From Escherichia phage GEP101: a stretch of DNA of 64,000 nucleotides. The stretch lies in sequence record PQ036202. One strand, given 5' to 3'. The notes under the pieces were generated by a model that was not told where the DNA came from, made no database searches, and saw nothing but the letters and a program-made list of their open reading frames with translations. Positions 1 to 34,299 of the stretch are shown in pieces; the first letter of the stretch is position 1, and every line of letters starts with the position of its first letter. Made by a program: the position numbers and the translations under genes.

Positions 1-626
1 CTGCCTCTACATCACTTGTAAGCTCTATTAGCTCTGTAACAGACCCTACAATAAAGGATAAGCTTATTGCTGCTGGACTTACAACAGTTCTGCTTAATAG
101 CTTTACAACGAGTCTGACAAGCACTACATCAACCACTAAGACACTGACAGATTACGGTCAAAAGTCCATCGATGAGTTTTCATCACGTATGCAGGTAGCA
201 AAAGGATATTCCAATGTTATGGGTGCAGCAGGAGAGCAAGTCGGTTGTACACCATTTAGTGGTATTATGGGTGTTGCTACAGAGTACGGTCAAAAAGCTA
301 TTGACACAATTAACAGTACACTAGACGGTGTTAATGACGTATTAAGTGACTTACAAGATGCTATTGATAAAGGTCTTGATACTATTTCTGATTTAGCTAA
401 CCAAGCTGTTAGCAAGATTAATGAAGGTATCTCAAAGATTACAGCTTATGCAGATGAAGTTGTGCAGATGATTGAAGAAGAAGCTGCCCTTATTGCAGAG
501 TACCTTAAAACGAATATCAATGGGTTCTTAGCAGGTATCTTACCAGACTGGTTTGATGATGCTTGTAAAACTGGTGTGATTGATACTATTGCAACACCAG
601 AAATGAAGAACGCATTACAGAAATAA
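1..626 (+). CDS. hypothetical protein, 5-prime truncated at window edge
   Basis: Frame 3 is open from position 3 into the listed ORF 189..626 with no stop; no recognisable motif. Confidence 0.4.
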   Translation, partial: ASTSLVSSISSVTDPTIKDKLIAAGLTTVLLNSFTTSLTSTTSTTKTLTDYGQKSIDEFSSRMQVAKGYSNVMGAAGEQVGCTPFSGIMGVATEYGQKAIDTINSTLDGVNDVLSDLQDAIDKGLDTISDLANQAVSKINEGISKITAYADEVVQMIEEEAALIAEYLKTNINGFLAGILPDWFDDACKTGVIDTIATPEMKNALQK

Positions 627-627
627 T

Positions 628-720
628 GGAAGATTAACCCTAAAAGGTAAGGGAGCAGTTTGCTAAACTGCCAGTAGCTGAGAAATCGGTGTACCAGTTC
701 AAGTCTGGTATCTTCCTCCA
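628..720 (+). tRNA. tRNA-Ser (anticodon GCU), type II with long variable arm, CCA encoded
   Basis: Acceptor GGAAGAT/ATCTTCC, anticodon stem GCAGT/ACTGC with loop TTGCTAA, T-arm ACCAG-TTCAAGT-CTGGT, 21-nt variable arm, 3-prime TCCA; folded by hand. Confidence 0.55.
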
Positions 721-724
721 ATTT

Positions 725-800
725 GAATCCGTGACAGAAATGGCTATGTGCCTGTCTGCAAAACAGGTTTATAAGGGTTCGAGTCCCTTCGGATTCTCCA
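725..800 (+). tRNA. tRNA-Cys (anticodon GCA), 76 nt, CCA encoded
   Basis: Perfect 7-bp acceptor GAATCCG/CGGATTC, U8, anticodon stem CCTGT/ACAGG with loop CTGCAAA, T-arm AAGGG-TTCGAGT-CCCTT, discriminator U73 typical of tRNA-Cys. Confidence 0.65.
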
Positions 801-837
801 AGTTATTTTACTCTCTCTCAATTAAAATAATAATAAT

Positions 838-897
838 GCCCTGCTATAAGTATTCTTCCTTTCGCTACCGAAGAGTATTTTTAGACAGGGCTTTTTT
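838..897 (+). terminator. nested hairpin followed by T-run downstream of the tRNA pair
   Basis: Outer stem GCCCTG/CAGGGC, inner stem TATTCTTC/GAAGAGTA, then TTTTTT. Confidence 0.4.
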
Positions 898-962
898 ACA
901 GAGTTATACTTTATAAGAAGGCTTATACAGTATGTCTCTGACGTACATTGTGGTTTCTCCTT

Positions 963-986
963 GACGGTCTCTGTACCGTCTTTTTT
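963..986 (+). terminator. rho-independent terminator
   Basis: GACGGT-CTCTGT-ACCGTC hairpin followed by TTTTTT. Confidence 0.5.
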
Positions 987-1022
987 AAGGGGAAACATGG
1001 TTAATTATTTGGAGAAAACATA

Positions 1023-1223
1023 ATGAGTGAGACCGTTTATAAAGAACTTTATGAAGCTAACAAAAAGCTAGAATTTATGCAGAACACTATCATGGCAATT
1101 GCAGATAGATTGTCTGTAGCAACAGGTATTGATATCAAAGAAGCCTCTATGGATGCACTTCTTGATGCTGTTGATGCAAAGTTCGAAGTTAAGAAAGAAG
1201 AGACTGCTACAGACTCTGAATAA
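1023..1223 (+). CDS. hypothetical small protein upstream of terminase
   Basis: 66-aa ORF, ATG start, position immediately 5-prime of terL. Confidence 0.35.
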   Translation: MSETVYKELYEANKKLEFMQNTIMAIADRLSVATGIDIKEASMDALLDAVDAKFEVKKEETATDSE

Positions 1224-1244
1224 TTCTATTTGCGGAGGTGCTTA

Positions 1245-2846
1245 ATGGACTTAAATGCTGTTAAGCAGAAGCGAGTGGAAGATGTTAGGAAAGTCCTAGC
1301 TGGAGAGTTGGGGCTTTCTGATGAAGTAAAAGAAATTATCAAATCATTCGGTAAAGACCCCTCTAAATTCCTTCCAACTCAAATTCTGACTTTATTAAGA
1401 TACACACCAGACCAAGTTAGACTTATCTTCAAATTGATGACTGATAAGAACTATGTAGCCCCTCAGCCGGGTTCTCAAGAGGTCTTTTTAAATACTAATG
1501 CTGACTTGGTTTTATATGGTGGTGCTGCTGGTGCTGGTAAAACTGCTGCATTGTTAATGGACTCTTTAAGGTTTATTGAAGACCCTAACTATAATGCTGT
1601 ATATTTCCGTCGAAATACAACACAGTTACAAGGTGGTTTATGGCCTGCTGCAAAGAAACTATTTGGTAAGTTTGGTGGGGTTCCTCACGAGCAGAAGATG
1701 ACTATCACATTCCCTTCTGGGGCAACTATTAAGTTCACCTACCTAGAACTTGAAAAGCACGCTGAAGGCCATCAGGGTATTGAATACTCAGCTATCTACT
1801 TTGACGAAGGTACACACTTCTCTGCTTCACAGATTTCGTACCTACAGACCCGTCTACGTTCTGGTGCTGAAGGTGACTCATACATGAAGATTTCTATGAA
1901 CCCAGATAGAGACCACTTCATTTATGATTGGGTAGAACCCTTCTTAGATGAAGAAGGTTACCCAGACCCTGAGAAGTGCGGTCGTATTCGTTGGTATGTT
2001 ATGAATGATGGTGTGATGGTTTCTGATTGGGAAAGAGACAAGATTCTTGAAATGTTCCCTCTTGAGATTCCTCAGACATACACCTTCATCTCTGGTACGA
2101 TTGATGATAACCCAATTCTTGACTTCTTAGAACCTAAATATCGTGGTAAGTTGGAAAACAACACACCTGTAAACGTTGCAAGACTTCGTTTCGGTAACTG
2201 GAAGGCTCGTGCAGAAGGTTCAAACTATTGGCAAAGACAATGGTGTGAGATTGTTGATTCACTCCCAGAAGATGTGTTTGATGTCAGAGCATGGGACTTA
2301 GCAGCAACTTTACCATCTGAGATTAACCCTAATCCAGACTGGACAGCGGGTGTTAAGATGGGTAAATCTAAAAAAGACGGTTGCTATTATATCATTGATG
2401 TAGTAAGATTTAGAGATAGACCCTCTGGAGTCGAAACACAAATTAATTTGACTGCTGAAAGTGACGGTAAGCGAACTGGTATTTTTATCCCTCAAGACCC
2501 AGGCGCTGCTGGTAAATCCTATGCAACATCCCTCATCAGGAAACTTGCCGAGAAAGGTTATCGCGCAAGAGCTAAACCAACAAATAAAGATAAAGTTACC
2601 CGCTTTGCGGGATTTTCTGCTGCTTCTGAAGCTGGACTTGTAAAAGTCTTGAGAGGTAGTTGGAATGAAGCTTACTTTCAAGAACTTGAAGGTTTTTGTG
2701 GTGATGGTAAAACTAAAGATGACCAAGTGGATGCTACCAGTGATGCTTTCAACAGTCTTAACGAAGTTAAATTATTCAAGCCACCATCAATGGGTGCTCA
2801 CACAGACTTAGTGAGAGGAAACCCATATGAGGGGCTTAGACGTTGA
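1245..2846 (+). CDS. terL: terminase large subunit
   Basis: ATG at 1245 with GGAGG RBS (listed ORF starts at TTG 1230); P-loop-like LYGGAAGAGKTAALL, IYFDEGTHF Walker B-like, gene directly precedes portal. Confidence 0.75.
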   Translation: MDLNAVKQKRVEDVRKVLAGELGLSDEVKEIIKSFGKDPSKFLPTQILTLLRYTPDQVRLIFKLMTDKNYVAPQPGSQEVFLNTNADLVLYGGAAGAGKTAALLMDSLRFIEDPNYNAVYFRRNTTQLQGGLWPAAKKLFGKFGGVPHEQKMTITFPSGATIKFTYLELEKHAEGHQGIEYSAIYFDEGTHFSASQISYLQTRLRSGAEGDSYMKISMNPDRDHFIYDWVEPFLDEEGYPDPEKCGRIRWYVMNDGVMVSDWERDKILEMFPLEIPQTYTFISGTIDDNPILDFLEPKYRGKLENNTPVNVARLRFGNWKARAEGSNYWQRQWCEIVDSLPEDVFDVRAWDLAATLPSEINPNPDWTAGVKMGKSKKDGCYYIIDVVRFRDRPSGVETQINLTAESDGKRTGIFIPQDPGAAGKSYATSLIRKLAEKGYRARAKPTNKDKVTRFAGFSAASEAGLVKVLRGSWNEAYFQELEGFCGDGKTKDDQVDATSDAFNSLNEVKLFKPPSMGAHTDLVRGNPYEGLRR

Positions 2847-2862
2847 TAGCTAGGTGAGAAGA

Positions 2863-4329
2863 ATGGCAGAAATTACAGAAACACAAGAAAGCTTACCACC
2901 ATTTAGAATGGGTGAAGTAGGTTCTTTGGGTCTGAAGGTTAAGAATGGTAGAATCTATGAAGAACCTCGTCAGGCACTAAGGTTCCCTGAAAGTATTAAA
3001 ACTTTCCAATTAATGATGCGTGACCCTGCTGTAGCAGCATCTGTAAATATTATTAAGATGTTTGTCAGAAAAGTCAACTGGAGATTCGTACCTCCAAAGG
3101 GAAAAGAGCAAGACCCTAAAATGCTTGAAAGAGCAGACTTCTTTAATTCTTTAATGGATGACATGGAGCATGATTGGGCAGATTTTATTAACTCTGTAAT
3201 GTCATTCTGCACTTATGGGTTCTGTGTTAACGAAAAGGTTTATAAGAAACGTCAGGGTAAAAAAGGGAAGTACCAGTCAAAATTTGATGATGGTCTAATT
3301 GGGTGGGCTAAATTACCAATCAGAAACCAGTCAACACTTGATAAGTGGTATTTTGACGAAGACTTTAGAAAAGTTACTGGTGTCAGACAAAATCTAAGAA
3401 ATGTTTCACATATTGCTGGAGCAATTAATCTTGGAGAAAGACCACTAACAAGAAAACTCCCACGAGCTAAATTCATGCTGTTTAAGTATGATGATGAGTA
3501 TGGTAACCCAGAAGGTCGTTCACCATTACTTAATGCTTATGTACCGTGGAAGTATAAAGTACAGATTGAAGAGTACGAAGCTGTTGGTGTTTCAAGAGAC
3601 TTAGTAGGTATGCCAAAGATTGGTTTACCACCAGATTATCTGGATGAAAATGCCGAACCTGAAAAGAAAGCTTTCGTACAATACTGCAAAACTGTTGTTA
3701 ATGATATGATTGCTAATGACAGAGCAGGTTTAATCTGGCCTAGATATATCGACCCAGAAACTAAAGAGGATATCTTTGAGTTCTCATTAGTTTCTAGACA
3801 GGGTGCTAAAGCATATGACACAGGCTCTATTATTGACAGATATTCCAAGCAAATTATGATGGCATTTATGTCAGATGTTCTTGCTATGGGTCAGTCAAAA
3901 TACGGTTCATTCTCTCTTGCAGATTCTAAGACAAGCTTATTAGCAATGTCAGTAGATATTCTGCTGAAGCAAATTAAGAACGTAATTAACCGTGATTTAG
4001 TTGCACAGACTTATGCTCTTAATATGTGGGATGATGAAGAACATGTGCAAATCACATATGATGATATCGAAACTCCAGACCTTGAAGCAATTGGTTCTTA
4101 TATTCAGAAGACTGTTGCAGTAGGTGCTTTGGAAGTTGACAAAGAGCTATCTAACAAACTTAGAGAGCATATTGGTCTTCCTCCTGCTGATGAGTCTCAG
4201 CCAGTATCTGAAAAGCTTTCTCCGAATAGCCAAAGCCGTTCAGGAGATGGTTATAAGACCGCTGGAGAAGGTACTGCAAAGACACCTTCAGCGAAAGACC
4301 CAAGCACAGCAAATAAGGCAAATAAATAA
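2863..4329 (+). CDS. portal protein
   Basis: about 490 aa immediately after terL, low-complexity charged C-terminus; ATG at 2863 with AGGTGA RBS. Confidence 0.6.
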   Translation: MAEITETQESLPPFRMGEVGSLGLKVKNGRIYEEPRQALRFPESIKTFQLMMRDPAVAASVNIIKMFVRKVNWRFVPPKGKEQDPKMLERADFFNSLMDDMEHDWADFINSVMSFCTYGFCVNEKVYKKRQGKKGKYQSKFDDGLIGWAKLPIRNQSTLDKWYFDEDFRKVTGVRQNLRNVSHIAGAINLGERPLTRKLPRAKFMLFKYDDEYGNPEGRSPLLNAYVPWKYKVQIEEYEAVGVSRDLVGMPKIGLPPDYLDENAEPEKKAFVQYCKTVVNDMIANDRAGLIWPRYIDPETKEDIFEFSLVSRQGAKAYDTGSIIDRYSKQIMMAFMSDVLAMGQSKYGSFSLADSKTSLLAMSVDILLKQIKNVINRDLVAQTYALNMWDDEEHVQITYDDIETPDLEAIGSYIQKTVAVGALEVDKELSNKLREHIGLPPADESQPVSEKLSPNSQSRSGDGYKTAGEGTAKTPSAKDPSTANKANK

Positions 4330-6941: not shown

Positions 6942-8054
6942 ATGTTGACTAATTCTGAAAAAAGCAGATTTTTCCTTGCTGACCTGACTGGTGAAGTCCA
7001 GTCTATCCCAAATACTTATGGGTATATTTCCAACTTAGGTCTGTTCCGTTCAGCACCAATCACCCAAACTACTTTCCTTATGGACTTGACTGATTGGGAT
7101 GTTAGCTTGCTTGATGCGGTAGACCGTGATAGCCGTAAAGCAGAGACTAGCGCACCTGAGCGTGTTCGTCAAATCAGCTTCCCAATGATGTACTTCAAAG
7201 AAGTTGAAAGCATCACTCCTGATGAAATTCAGGGTGTACGTCAGCCAGGCACTGCAAACGAGCTTACTACTGAAGCTGTAGTACGTGCTAAGAAGCTGAT
7301 GAAGATTCGTACCAAGTTTGATATTACTCGTGAGTTCCTGTTTATGCAAGCTCTGAAGGGTAAAGTTGTCGATGCTCGTGGTACTCTGTACGCTGACCTG
7401 TACAAGCAGTTCGACGTTGAGAAGAAGACTATTCACTTCGACCTTGACAACCCTAATGCTGACATCGACGCTGCTATTGAAGAACTGCGTATGCACATGG
7501 AAGACGAAGCTAAGACTGGCACTGTAATCAACGGTGAAGAAATTCACGTAGTTGTTGACCGTGTATTCTTCAGCAAACTGGTTAAGCATCCTAAGATTCG
7601 TGACGCTTATCTTGCACAACAGACTCCACTGGCTTGGCAGCAGATTACTGGTTCTCTGAGAACTGGTGGTACTGACGGCGTTCAGGCTCATATGAATACT
7701 TTCTACTACGGTGGTGTTAAGTTTGTCCAGTACAACGGTAAGTTCAAAGACAAGCGTGGTAAGGTTCACACTCTGGTTAGCATTGATGGTGTTACTCAGG
7801 ATGGAACTGTAGGTGTAGGACACGCCTTCCCTAACGTTTCTATGCTGGGTGAAGCAAACAACATCTTCGAAGTGGCATATGGTCCATGTCCTAAGATGGG
7901 TTATGCGAATACACTTGGTCAGGAACTATACGTATTCGAATACGAAAAAGACCGTGACGAAGGTATCGACTTTGAAGCTCACTCTTACATGCTGCCATAC
8001 TGTACTCGTCCTCAGTTGCTGGTAGACGTTCGTTCTGACGCTAAAGGTGGCTGA
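6942..8054 (+). CDS. major capsid protein (lambda gpE-like)
   Basis: 370 aa, position after protease/decoration genes, overall resemblance to gpE-family capsid proteins. Confidence 0.7.
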   Translation: MLTNSEKSRFFLADLTGEVQSIPNTYGYISNLGLFRSAPITQTTFLMDLTDWDVSLLDAVDRDSRKAETSAPERVRQISFPMMYFKEVESITPDEIQGVRQPGTANELTTEAVVRAKKLMKIRTKFDITREFLFMQALKGKVVDARGTLYADLYKQFDVEKKTIHFDLDNPNADIDAAIEELRMHMEDEAKTGTVINGEEIHVVVDRVFFSKLVKHPKIRDAYLAQQTPLAWQQITGSLRTGGTDGVQAHMNTFYYGGVKFVQYNGKFKDKRGKVHTLVSIDGVTQDGTVGVGHAFPNVSMLGEANNIFEVAYGPCPKMGYANTLGQELYVFEYEKDRDEGIDFEAHSYMLPYCTRPQLLVDVRSDAKGG

Positions 8055-29901: not shown

Positions 29902-30138
29902 TCACTCAATAACAGTAGTGTGTGATTGACCATTTTTGCCATAGCTATAAGATGTTGTTGTTTGAGAGTTTGGACATCTGACAACAACAATATCTCTGCT
30001 TATGGCATCACCATGTAACTTATAGACTTTGCAATCTTGCATCTCTGGTGGGAGGCTATAAGAAGCATTTTTATCTTCATAAGAAGGGTTGCACCCAGCT
30101 AGAAAAATAACACCAAGTGCAATTACTGCTTTCCACAT
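29902..30138 (-). CDS. small lipoprotein
   Basis: MWKAVIALGVIFLAGC lipobox after ATG 30138 with AGGAGAGG RBS; 78 aa. Confidence 0.5.
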   Translation of the reverse strand: MWKAVIALGVIFLAGCNPSYEDKNASYSLPPEMQDCKVYKLHGDAISRDIVVVRCPNSQTTTSYSYGKNGQSHTTVIE

Positions 30139-30151
30139 AATACCTCTCCTA

Positions 30152-30307
30152 TTACTGTTCACGATGTTCTACTTCTCTGTACGTTCGTCGATAGTATATA
30201 ATAAGCTGTGCTAACTCGTTGCTTTTAACATCTGAACGTAGCAGTTGCCAATCAAAACCTTTACCAACTCTTCCATATAAGCTAAATAATTTTACTTTGC
30301 GTTTCAT
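30152..30307 (-). CDS. small hypothetical protein (51 aa), not in ORF track
   Basis: ATG at 30307 with GGGAG RBS; translation MKRKVKLFSLYGRVGKGFDWQLL... Confidence 0.3.
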   Translation of the reverse strand: MKRKVKLFSLYGRVGKGFDWQLLRSDVKSNELAQLIIYYRRTYREVEHREQ

Positions 30308-30794: not shown

Positions 30795-31328
30795 TCAAGA
30801 TAGTTTTGCAAACTCTCCGTGGAGTTTAATAGCAGCTTCACAGTAAGCTTTATGGGCTTCTTCTGGTGTGTCATGATAACCTAAAAACATCTTCTTACCT
30901 TTATAACTTATCTGTGCGACCCACTTACCAGACTTCTTCTTAAGACTTACACCCTTGTACCCAGATTTATTGGTGACTGGTTTACCTTTATTCCAAGCAC
31001 TTTGAAAGTCATCTGCTTCCCTTAAGTTTACAATCCTGTTGTCAAGTGAGTCTCCGTTGATATGGTCAATGATACCTTTTGGCATCTTGCCATACACGTA
31101 AAGCCATGCGAGTCTGTGTGCTTTATGTGCTTTCTTGTCAAAATAGATACTAACCTGTTTATGACCACTTGAATCAGTCTGGATATTACCTGCCACCTTT
31201 CCTGCATAATTACTGTTAAAAACACTAACAGCTCTTGATTTACCTTCTCTACGAAGCCAAGTAAAGACCCCTGTTTCGGGGTCATAGTGCAGCAGCTCCT
31301 TTAAACGTTTTTGTAAAATTAAATCCAT
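30795..31328 (-). CDS. HNH homing endonuclease with AP2-like DNA-binding domain
   Basis: IDHINGDSLDNRIVNLREA HNH motif; YKGVS...KWVAQISYKGKKMFLGYHDTPEEA AP2-like; start 3 nt after DNA polymerase stop. Confidence 0.75.
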   Translation of the reverse strand: MDLILQKRLKELLHYDPETGVFTWLRREGKSRAVSVFNSNYAGKVAGNIQTDSSGHKQVSIYFDKKAHKAHRLAWLYVYGKMPKGIIDHINGDSLDNRIVNLREADDFQSAWNKGKPVTNKSGYKGVSLKKKSGKWVAQISYKGKKMFLGYHDTPEEAHKAYCEAAIKLHGEFAKLS

Positions 31329-31888: not shown

Positions 31889-32156
31889 CATCTGGTCAAT
31901 ACACTCGCAAGGTGTACCAGTTCTCTTATGAACTTCTCCGCATTTCTACGGAGTGTCGGACTATATCACGTAGCAGTGATGCTACCGTTGCACTTGGGGA
32001 TGGCCATTAGCTTACCACCCTACTCTACTCAGTTCATACATTAAGTATGCTTTTCGATAGTCTCTGAACGTTCCTCTTAAGAGGCTTCGCTGCTGATTAC
32101 CATATCTTTCCAGACTTAGGCTTCCAGCAATTCACAACGTTTTACATGCGCCACTG
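31889..32156 (-). ncRNA. group I self-splicing intron (ORF-less) in DNA polymerase gene
   Basis: Minus-strand P/Q/R/S elements AATTGCTGGAA, AATCAGCAGC, GTTCAGAGACTATCG, GTGATATAGTCCG; IGS GCGCAT pairs exon end ATGCGT with U-G at splice site; terminal G. Confidence 0.8.
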
Positions 32157-34299
32157 ACGCATAAATGCCATTTTTGGCTTTCTTACGACCTTTTGTAATC
32201 TCGTGAAGAAGCTCCTCATCCTGCGTCTCCCTACAACGAACAATATCATCTTCCTTGTTTAGACCAAAGTAAATACTATTCAGTGTATGTGCATCAGTAC
32301 CTGTGTAGACTTCGTAGAGGTCATTCTCAGCATCATAACGAAGATACTTATCAGTTTCTGGATTGAGGTACTTATCGAGATGCTTGCAATAGTATCTTCC
32401 ATCCTCTTGCTTGGTAAATTCTACTGACTCTTTACCTTCAGTTACCGCTTTGGTGAAGTCTTTATCACCCATAAAGTTACACAGTAAAACAAGCTGTGCA
32501 GAGTTCTGGTCAACTGAAACGATATTAGTCCCTTCCTCGCAAATCCACACCTCCCTCATAGGTGCTCCATAGACAGCAGCACCAGACGGTACGTTTACAA
32601 TACCATATTGTGTCATACGTCCAGTTGAAGTACCAAATACCATTGCACCGGCACTAAGGCGACCATCAGGGCGAATCTGGTTCAACCAACCTTTTTCATC
32701 ATCCTTTGAGTTCTCAATAGTTCTACGTCGGTGCATCAAAGTGTAGTATTTCGCAATCTTCTGTCCAAGCTCACCTTCAATCGTATCATAAGATGATTCA
32801 GTAAGTTTTGGTGAAGTACGGATTAAGCAAGGCTCAAGCAAATCTGTGTACTTCTTCACAGACCAGTTATGCTCAATGTACTGGACACCTTCATGTTCAA
32901 CATAACTCAAACCACACCGTTCCACCATCTCATCCCACTTAGGATGCTTTGTAATCATCTTTTTGTTGTCTTTGAAACGACAAACTTTGACAGGACGACC
33001 GTCAGAGTCTTTCTTGTAGTTCCAGTCATCTGGAATCCAACCAACTGATTTCAAGTAGTCTTTAACAACTGCTACCTGAGTCATACGAGAAACTTCGAAC
33101 TCAATTGGTGTATATGGTGCATCAATCAAACCTGTGTAGCGACTTGACTCAAGCTCAAAGTGGTTAACGACATGGCTGTTATAGTACTTCACAGTTTTAA
33201 CTGTTTTTACTGGCTTCCAGTCTTTGCACTTCTTACCAATCTTTGCATTCAACTCATTGCAAATTGCACGAGCATCCTTCATTGCTACAAAACCTTCCTT
33301 GTACTCTTCACCAGTTACAGAGTTGGTTGGTGTATAGCAATTCCGCTTTTCAATGTTAAAAATCTTTGTAGTTGGCTTACCAAATGGCTTGATTTCATAT
33401 GTCTGCATCTCACCGTTACGTACCTGTTGACGATACTTTGTCTTAGGGTACTTGGTAATTCTTTTCAGTCCATCTGCATGACCAAATGCTTCAACATACT
33501 CATTCCAAGCTTTTGCAAACTCTTCTCCAGTGACTTTACCTTTGGTCTTAATAGTTGGAGGAAGATGTGGTTCAACTTCTGAAGCAAGCTCATTAGTCAA
33601 CTTGTCAAGTTCCTTTACATGAAACTCCATAAGCTCTTTATCAGCTTTCCAACCATTGATAGCCTGTTGACTCATCCAGAAAGATGTTTCTTTAGCTCGC
33701 ATGTAAGTCTCATAAGTGTCTATACCACACTTCTTAAGCTTGAGATACTCGTTATCAAGTGCCCGTTTAGTTTTGGCGTTGATACGGATATCTTCCACAA
33801 CACGAGTGAAGATTTCTGCATTCCACACACCCCAATGTTCAATCTCTGGTTTACGGACACCAACACGAGCACCCCATGCTGCCAAGCCATGAGCACCTTT
33901 ATAGCCCTTTGGAGTTGGTCTATCCATCCACTGAACACGAGACTGGATAAGAGAATCCTGAAAGAAATTACTCCACGGCTTACACTTTGGATTATCAAAG
34001 TTCCACAAATCAGGTGCAATGTGGTTGAAAACCCACCAGTCATAACCGAGACCGTTATGGATGCAAAGACGTTTTGCCTTTAACGCAAACTCAACACCTT
34101 CACGCAAACCACCCTTAATGTACTTGGTGTACTTGTGACCGAGGATAGGCTCATCTGTAAAGACCCATACAGGTGGCTCTTCATCGTCAGATTTATAGTC
34201 TGCGAAAGCCATGACGTGTACTTTAGTGAACTCAAGGAGTAAACCATCAGTTTCTGTATCACCAACTAAGTGTAAGTTTTTAAAATCTACGTTTTCCAT
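32157..34299 (-). CDS. DNA polymerase family A, exon 1 (3-5 exonuclease and polymerase motif A, first half of motif B)
   Basis: GDTETDGL exo motif (cf. Pol I DTETDSL), DQNSAQLVLL motif A-like, RKKAKNGIYA start of motif B; start at ATG 34299 with GAGGGA RBS. Confidence 0.8.

Follow-up and report, generated by a model that had tools for sequence, protein, structure and literature searches.

Two tRNA genes lie in tandem near the start of the 64,000-nucleotide stretch of Escherichia phage GEP101 DNA that was analysed as a whole (the window): a class II tRNA-Ser(GCU) gene at 628..720 and a tRNA-Cys(GCA) gene at 725..800, both on the plus strand and separated by the 4-nt spacer ATTT (721..724, +). 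On their 5′ side, 3..626 (+) is occupied by the 3′ part (207 codons) of an ORF of approximately 245 aa that matched Pfam DUF7217 (E = 1.1e-76) and phrog_2114; its TAA stop codon (624-626) lies 1 nt before the first base of tRNA-Ser. On their 3′ side, hairpins at 838-986 are followed by a 66-aa ORF (1023..1223, +; phrog_4397, E = 6e-41) directly 5′ of the gene for the large terminase subunit (1245..2846, +; Pfam Terminase_6N and Terminase_6C; phrog_979, E = 4e-233), with which the packaging module starts. The portal gene (2863..4329) lies downstream of the large terminase gene.

Nucleotide identity and a gene order like that of genus members identified the source of the window as a Felixounavirus (Felix O1 group). 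Positions 400-1300 of the window were 99.7% identical to Salmonella phage SP3_SHan-2021, reached at least 95% identity in over 200 phage records, most of which come from Escherichia, Salmonella, and Shigella hosts, and were covered to at least 80% by 252 records; the assignment of the relatives to Felixounavirus refers to those annotated relatives that were examined. In phage SME50 (MT887289), tRNA-Ser-GCT t024 and tRNA-Cys-GCA t025 are the same genes in the same position with the same neighbours; the region was 99.0% identical, and the tandem unit differed by one base. They are the last two (nos. 24 and 25) in an array of 25 tRNAs, and the other 23 tRNAs lie directly upstream, set apart from the pair by the single 245-aa DUF7217 ORF. 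Since the window opens inside this dividing ORF, 109 nt from its start, only two tRNAs are seen in it. The earlier note had thus placed the tandem tRNAs correctly, immediately upstream of the packaging module, but they are the tail of an approximately 25-gene array and not an isolated pair. No material difference was found from the other members of Felixounavirus that carry the array, although the Ser gene is inconsistently annotated among them.

The order tRNA-Phe, DUF7217 ORF, tRNA-Ser, tRNA-Cys, 66-aa ORF, and TerL was kept in Felixounavirus, in Mooglevirus (Sf15 and Mijalis), and in Suspvirus (mistaenkt). The records of SME50, Sf15, mistaenkt, and Mijalis all contain a full-length DUF7217 homologue between tRNA-Phe and tRNA-Ser and carry the 66-aa ORF as a CDS. 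The Ser-Cys spacer was 6-7 nt in Mooglevirus- and Suspvirus-like relatives, compared with 4 nt here, and in Sf15 and Mijalis, which belong to the other genus Mooglevirus, the acceptor stem of tRNA-Cys differed but was fully compensated. We also considered the DUF7217 ORF as the Felix O1 structural protein Gp49 and rejected this assignment owing to a numbering misfit, as Gp49 is a 51-kDa protein and TerL is gp52 in the Felix O1 paper.

The pair itself is already known. Many Felixounavirus records carry both genes as annotated features, and a 2025 study (PMC12482277) analysed their orthologues in the Shigella phage Sf14 (Mooglevirus), where they are tRNAs 24 (Ser-GCT) and 25 (Cys-GCA) and lie at the end of a set of 26 tRNAs. 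For Felix O1, tRNA-Cys was reported in 2010 as tRNA no. 22 (Cys-GCA, 30105..30180; PMC3185647). In the Felix O1 record, ARAGORN found an unannotated tRNA-Ser at the position corresponding to 30008..30100.

Structure and conservation of the two tRNA genes

ARAGORN reported exactly two tRNAs in the whole 64-kb window, Ser(gct) at 628..720 and Cys(gca) at 725..800, both on the plus strand, and both genes were also recognised by the Rfam tRNA model (RF00005; gathering score, 29). The match of tRNA-Ser extended over 628..717 (46.2 bits, E = 1.1e-6) and that of tRNA-Cys over 725..797 (56.4 bits, E = 1.8e-9), with zero non-canonical pairs in either alignment. The two tRNAs that the earlier note had read from the sequence, the 4-nt separation, and the CCA encoded by each gene were all confirmed.

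tRNA-Ser has a 7-bp acceptor stem (628-634/710-716), a D arm with G18 and G19 at 646-647, the anticodon GCT at 662-664 in the loop UUGCUAA, and the T loop UUCAAGU. Its variable region (672-692) is 21 nt long and contains a 5-bp stem (677-681/686-690) with a GAAA loop, which makes it a class II arm. The Rfam alignment placed one additional base between positions 9 and 10. The discriminator is T717 (U73), followed by the encoded CCA at 718-720. A GCU anticodon decodes AGY codons.

In tRNA-Cys, the 7-bp acceptor stem is formed by 725-731/790-796, G18 and G19 of the D arm are located at 742-743, the anticodon GCA (758-760) lies in the loop CUGCAAA, and the T loop is UUCGAGU; the discriminator T797 (U73) precedes the encoded CCA at 798-800. 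In both tRNAs, U33 is present in the 7-nt anticodon loop and the T loop conforms to UUCRANY. The GCA anticodon and U73 are identity elements for cysteinyl-tRNA synthetase (CysRS), and U73 was found in 57 of the 58 distinct viral Cys-GCA sequences sampled. The G15:G48 pair, which also matters for CysRS, is present in E. coli cysT together with A13·A22, whereas the phage tRNA has A739 (position 15) opposite U772 (position 48) and G13·A22.

The discriminator of tRNA-Ser differs from the G73 of E. coli serV, and the call had been regarded as less certain on this account. The base is indeed U, but the lowered confidence proved unfounded. U73 and CCA occurred together in all Ounavirinae copies of the gene and also in Epseptimavirus and Novosibvirus, while the Mydovirus copy has G73; these are three phage groups that keep U73 with covarying stems. 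Of the distinct viral Ser-GCU sequences, 74 had an acceptor stem that could be scored; their discriminator was G in 55 sequences, U in 13, and A in 6. U73 is therefore a conserved minority state and no mark of decay. Because G73 is a minor determinant for E. coli seryl-tRNA synthetase (SerRS), U73 makes tRNA-Ser less typical without undoing the Ser assignment. For the Sf14 orthologue, the isotype models of tRNAscan-SE gave a score for Cys (42.4) slightly above that for Ser (38.8) (PMC12482277). According to the notes in the Sf15 GenBank record, tRNAscan-SE calls both the Ser and the Cys genes.

Two collections of homologues were made. For the first, viral contigs were scanned for exact patterns of the two anticodon arms; at least 120 contigs matched the Ser arm and 52 the Cys arm, and the matches recognised as tRNAs were all typed by ARAGORN as Ser-gct (96) or Cys-gca (41). 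A second set consisted of tRNA-Ser homologues from Epseptimavirus, Mydovirus, Kolesnikvirus, and Novosibvirus records. In the alignment of 18 Ser sequences, covering the cloverleaf and the variable arm, 98.1% of cells were paired and 18 of the 26 pairs showed compensatory change; none of 500 shuffles scored as high, and slid partners were paired in only 37-48% of cells. The variable arm covaried in its own right (90.9% of cells paired). The 17 Cys sequences gave similar values, with 98.8% of cells paired and compensatory change in 15 of 19 pairs, which were not reached by any of 500 shuffles. The changes affected all four stems and the variable arm of tRNA-Ser as well as the stems of tRNA-Cys, and came from Ounavirinae, Demerecviridae, Vequintavirinae, and uncultured viral contigs. 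Both cloverleaves are far beyond chance. We concluded that the two tRNA genes at 628..800 are real, as established by their identity, structure, conservation, and genomic context.

The tRNA-Ser(GCU) genes of the Epseptimavirus GreteKellenberger (T5-like), the Novosibvirus Stubb, and the Mydovirus KB57 showed global identities of 82-89% to that of the window. Their acceptor stem is almost unchanged (GGAAGAU/AUCUUCC; Stubb has one compensated pair change), their D arm and anticodon loop are the same, and the copies in Epseptimavirus and Novosibvirus share U73. Compensatory changes distinguish the anticodon, variable, and T stems, and the Mydovirus copy differs in its G73. The neighbourhood is also different: the next gene is tRNA-Met, or there is none within 80 nt, instead of tRNA-Cys as here. 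Since the acceptor stem and D arm are nearly invariant across unrelated phage families, tRNA-Ser appears to have moved between such families.

Capture of the pair from the host in recent times was considered and rejected. No match to 628-800 was found by blastn in 5,426 complete E. coli genomes, and the genes are only about 60% identical to serV and cysT in global alignment (55 of 93 positions for Ser and 46 of 76 for Cys). E. coli serV and cysT have the same anticodons and also encode CCA, serV is likewise class II, and cysT likewise has U73; however, the two host genes sit in different operons, unlike the adjoining phage pair. The two genes are long-standing phage genes.

Codon usage and the role of the pair

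We hold with high confidence that 628..800 contains two functional phage tRNA genes, the last two of the approximately 25-gene Felixounavirus array, which most likely serve to complete the tRNA set of the phage. For co-transcription, processing, charging, and the physiological role, we infer the following course. The pair would share a rightward transcript with the DUF7217 ORF and tRNA array that lie upstream, because no promoter-like site was found within 1-627 and the stop codon of the ORF is 1 nt from tRNA-Ser. RNase P would cleave at the 5′ end of each tRNA, also parting the pair, and host 3′ exonucleases would trim the 4-nt trailer of tRNA-Ser and the trailer of tRNA-Cys back to the encoded CCA; no CCA addition step would be needed, since both genes encode it. 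Close-set tRNA genes are likewise processed from one precursor in the tRNA dimers of phage T4 and in polycistronic tRNA operons of E. coli, the latter being separated by RNase P. The two tRNAs here are also a few nt apart on one strand and presumably share a transcript; the conserved hairpins 838-897 and 963-986 would be where this transcript ends or undergoes processing. tRNA-Ser would then be charged by host SerRS via its long variable arm, and tRNA-Cys by host CysRS via U73 and the GCA anticodon. By adding the decoding of AGY (Ser) and UGY (Cys) codons, the pair would extend the phage tRNA set to 19 of the 20 amino acids and help sustain phage translation as the host tRNA supply drops during infection. 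The 25 tRNAs of SME50 indeed cover every amino acid except Trp, and tRNAs for Cys and the AGY box come from this pair only. In Sf14, the orthologous set also spans 19 amino acids and has the same anticodon loops in this pair; the authors of that study found that codon compensation fails and preferred the view that the phage relies on its own tRNAs while the tRNA genes of the host are being destroyed (PMC12482277). Genome-wide knockouts in the Felixounavirus Bas63 showed its tRNA genes to be mostly dispensable on laboratory hosts (bioRxiv 10.1101/2024.10.10.617714), and therefore any benefit of the pair would be conditional.

A different role had been suggested by the earlier note, which pointed to phage tRNAs matching codons that are enriched in late genes relative to the host; the pair would then be kept for an excess of AGC/AGU and UGC/UGU codons and would speed the synthesis of structural proteins. 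Codon usage was compared between 71 non-overlapping ORFs of the window (18,968 codons) and a sample of 64 annotated E. coli K-12 genes (15,169 codons). AGC was used 7.1 times per 1000 codons in the phage and 15.1 times in the E. coli sample, AGU 11.0 and 6.9 times, and AGY in total 18.0 and 22.0 times, respectively; Cys codons amounted to 12.7 per 1000 in the phage and 8.6 in the sample. AGU and UGU thus occur in the phage at approximately 1.6-1.8 times the frequency of the sample, and Ser and Cys were reported as over-represented amino acids in the Felix O1 proteome (PMC3185647), both of which fit compensation. The same is true of the major capsid ORF (6942..8054), in which AGC accounts for 8 of 16 Ser codons, compared with 11% genome-wide; however, it was the only AGC-rich ORF among the structural genes. 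Within the phage, AGY codons amounted to 19.6 per 1000 in the structural block and 17.0 elsewhere. Cys codons showed the reverse of late enrichment, with 6.6 per 1000 in the block and 16.6 outside it. The literature on relatives also argues against compensation: AGC and TGC are used significantly less in Sf14 than in its host (PMC12482277), and Ser-AGC and Cys-TGC are absent from the list of seven Felix O1 tRNAs expected to aid translation (PMC3185647). Late-gene enrichment relative to the host does not account for the Ser-Cys pair, and the correction of codon bias in general seems unlikely to be the reason for its retention. Completion of a nearly self-sufficient tRNA set is the more plausible role.

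We also considered the possibility that the pair serves counter-defence, with the phage copies replacing, or acting as decoys for, host tRNA-Ser(GCU) and tRNA-Cys that a defence nuclease aimed at tRNAs cleaves or depletes, and resisting it through altered anticodon loops. The bases at loop position 32 are in fact swapped between the phage genes and E. coli serV and cysT (Ser, UUGCUAA in the phage and CUGCUAA in the host; Cys, CUGCAAA and UUGCAAA), a difference also described for Sf14 (PMC12482277). Phage tRNAs neutralise PARIS and retron effectors (PMC11464382, PMC11555353), the idea of altered anticodon loops is in print (PMC10264068), and the Ser anticodon arm was identical in at least 120 viral contigs although the tRNA bodies were otherwise divergent. 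On the other hand, no enterobacterial defence nuclease directed against tRNA-Ser(GCU) or tRNA-Cys was found in the literature, and the analysis of loop mutations in the orthologous Sf14 set ruled out escape from anticodon nucleases (PMC12482277). A function in counter-defence is accordingly judged quite doubtful.

Far less probable is the view that tRNA-Ser is a decaying pseudo-tRNA, marked by U73 and an odd D-arm junction and carried along with a tRNA-Cys that alone is functional. It could appeal to annotation. The original tRNAscan-SE analysis of Felix O1 missed the Ser gene (PMC3185647), and the Felix O1 record is featureless at this place. Among the 30 closest records, five annotate tRNA-Cys alone and one gives the second tRNA as 'tRNA-OTHER'; the same label is used for tRNA-Ser in Phage NBSal004 and Salmonella phage Stitch, and the copy in Yersinia phage phiR2-01 is labelled tRNA-Pseudo-GCT. 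No other element of the locus, however, is as conserved as this gene, which shows 95-97% identity between genera compared with 65-79% for the flanking ORFs. The compensatory changes in 18 of its 26 pairs, with 98.1% of cells paired, and the retention of U73 with CCA in three unrelated phage groups argue likewise against decay.

Two ORFs overlap the tRNA genes, at 446..721 (-) and 689..916 (+), and both had been thought to be spurious. This was borne out in the relatives. The ORF at 689..916 gave a full-length match to phrog_20550 (E = 6e-53) and no match to Pfam, and is the counterpart of ORF113 in the Felix O1 GenBank record. Its frame through tRNA-Cys is shifted in Sf15, because the Ser-Cys spacer varies by 2-3 nt between genera; it is interrupted by stops in mistaenkt and Mijalis, and its GTG start is lost. 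The ORF at 446..721 had no family match and contains stops in relatives. The ORF at 689..916 is mis-called, and its conservation belongs to the underlying tRNA and hairpin. That the interval is protein-coding through either or both of these ORFs and matches a cloverleaf incidentally can thus be dismissed as next to impossible, even with phrog_20550 and ORF113 in its favour, since repeated annotation of one tRNA-overlapping ORF accounts for that family.

A conserved structured block downstream of the tRNA genes

Three hairpins and two U runs lie in the region 838..986, within which an invariant promoter-like site is also embedded. The first hairpin (H1, 838-891, +) is followed by a run of six U residues (892-897); together, at 838..897, they would form an intrinsic terminator or a processing site with which the tRNA transcription unit ends. 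It is long and bulged, with a predicted folding energy of -25.4 kcal/mol (z = -5.7), and none of 200 shuffles folded as well. Across three genera, H1 was 95-97% identical, with one compensatory pair (U-A to C-G). The second hairpin (H2, 899..940, +) has 17 pairs in the RNAalifold consensus, also with one compensatory pair; it excludes, and is excluded by, a smaller hairpin at 930-946, and all four bases were found among relatives at its loop position 921. The third (H3, 963-980, +), detected by the terminator scan, is followed by a run of six T residues (981-986) to give a terminator-like element at 963..986, 37 nt upstream of the 66-aa ORF. H3 was 95.8% identical across genera and is labelled as a terminator in the record of Citrobacter phage Mijalis. 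A candidate sigma-70-like promoter, TAGACA-17-TATACT (882..910, +), agrees with the consensus at 10 of 12 positions and overlaps both H1 (3′ arm) and H2 (5′ arm). Both of its hexamers were invariant in an alignment of five sequences from Felixounavirus, Suspvirus, and Mooglevirus.

The earlier note had described 838..897 and 963..986 as hairpin terminators. Both hairpins are real, each being a G+C-rich stem-loop with a U run directly after it, and termination, the part of the claim that goes beyond structure, would be the simplest reading of them. Neither site appears in the terminator table for Felix O1 (PMC3185647). H1 and H3 are far more conserved than plain terminators require. The block as a whole showed 89-97% identity across three Ounavirinae genera, compared with 65-79% for the adjoining ORFs, and its variation among 25 distinct relatives was confined to loops, bulges, and two compensated stem changes. 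This degree of conservation suggests an additional role.

Other causes of this conservation were excluded, namely a known Rfam family, protein coding, and a genome terminus. A permissive Rfam search of 560-1260 gave, besides the tRNAs, sub-threshold chance matches only. A hidden protein gene at 822..998 (-) was considered, as its frame is open in relatives, but nearly all substitutions change the amino acid (by inspection), the start codon is not conserved, and no family match was obtained. As for a genome end or packaging site, the 581-bp terminal repeat of the Felixounavirus Pr103Blw had no match in the window. The region is present twice, 38.5 kb apart, in MG969407.1 (UNVERIFIED), which we attribute to an assembly artefact.

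Implications for Felixounavirus genomes

These results bear on annotation as well as on function. A large share of Felixounavirus records, that of Felix O1 among them, lack the Ser(GCU) gene or give it a wrong label, and the spurious ORF across tRNA-Cys has spread into a PHROG family. The codon-compensation rationale is unsuited to the Ser-Cys pair. The tRNA-Ser(GCU) with U73 may be a phage-specific isoacceptor that is exchanged between unrelated phage families. The one mildly new element is the conserved, structured stretch (838-986) that separates the tRNAs from the terminase operon. We raise only tentatively, as an unlikely explanation, that this block of approximately 150 nt is an undescribed structured regulatory or processing RNA that goes beyond two simple terminators. 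It may, for example, control whether transcription continues from the tRNA unit into the packaging operon, as a switch of the terminator/antiterminator or RNase III type.

Relatives and annotation of the tRNA pair

The anticodon arm of the tRNA-Ser(GCU) gene (628..720, + strand), the 17-nt sequence GCAGUUUGCUAAACUGC, is shared without change by at least 120 viral contigs, which range from 4.6 to 494 kb (loci L002–L121). The tRNA-Ser bodies around this shared arm were otherwise very different, comprising 60 distinct sequences. The adjacency of Ser(GCU) and Cys(GCA) was also observed in a second lineage (loci L022, L031, and L107), whose Ser tRNA has A73. Contigs of uncultured viruses, several of which are large, also contained tRNAs of 82–92 nt with a Cys (GCA) anticodon: L133 (13287..13378), L159 (6687..6778), L156 (3638..3725), L047, L112, L024, L100, and L137. 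In the sequences inspected (82–92 nt; L133, L159, L156, and L137), the variable region is long and the discriminator is U.

In the Felix O1 reference record (AF320576.1), which carries no tRNA-Ser feature, ARAGORN found the tRNA-Ser gene at 30008..30100 (1009..1101 of locus L174). Among the 30 closest records, both tRNAs were annotated in 12, tRNA-Cys alone in 5, and neither in 12; the second tRNA was named "tRNA-OTHER" in one. The region is labeled tRNA-Ala in UAB_69, and the Ser copy is labeled tRNA-Pseudo-GCT in Yersinia phage phiR2-01.

The earlier note had remarked that phage tRNAs often match codons enriched in late genes. This argument gained some support at the major capsid ORF (6942..8054, + strand), where AGC accounted for 8 of the 16 Ser codons and AGT for none, and nowhere else; this ORF differed from every other structural ORF in its AGC/AGT usage.

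Group I intron and a region present twice in a Salmonella phage record

The DNA polymerase gene is split by a group I intron at 31936..32219 on the minus strand (Rfam RF00028, 62.1 bits, E=2.4e-13). In the annotations of relatives, two "DNA polymerase" CDSs and an adjoining HNH endonuclease are present; in the window, HNH_3 and AP2 domains are encoded by an ORF at 30795..31328 on the minus strand. Alignment through the intron segment was confined to a minority of Felixounavirus records, and the upstream exon was the sole part matched in many records, including Moogle and Sf15. Introns are absent according to the Felix O1 paper (PMC3185647).

An UNVERIFIED Salmonella phage record, MG969407.1 (L170/L171), contained the region corresponding to 1–3000 of the window twice. 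The copies lie 38.5 kb apart and share about 95% identity, which suggests that the assembly is chimeric or mixed rather than that the record has a terminal repeat.

Sequences flanking and overlapping the tRNA pair

Downstream of tRNA-Cys(GCA) (725..800, + strand) lies a non-coding block at 838..986 on the plus strand, with three hairpins (838–891; 899–940 or 930–946; 963–980) and two U runs. It also contains a promoter-like site (882–910) that is invariant. Its identity between Felixounavirus, Mooglevirus, and Suspvirus was 89–97%, against 65–79% for the flanking ORFs. A search of the block against Rfam gave no match, and both a protein-coding reading and a genome end at this position were rejected.

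The ORF at 689..916 on the plus strand, which is ORF113 of Felix O1, covers the 3′ end of tRNA-Ser, the whole tRNA-Cys, and most of the first hairpin; it is spurious. Since the full-length model of phrog_20550 corresponds to this ORF, the family seems to have arisen from misannotation.

A gene for a DUF7217 protein (3..626, + strand) also lies within the tRNA array, and its product is annotated inconsistently as a membrane, structural, or receptor-binding protein. Its stop codon is located 1 nt upstream of tRNA-Ser, and RNase P cleavage would therefore set the 3′ end of the DUF7217 mRNA.
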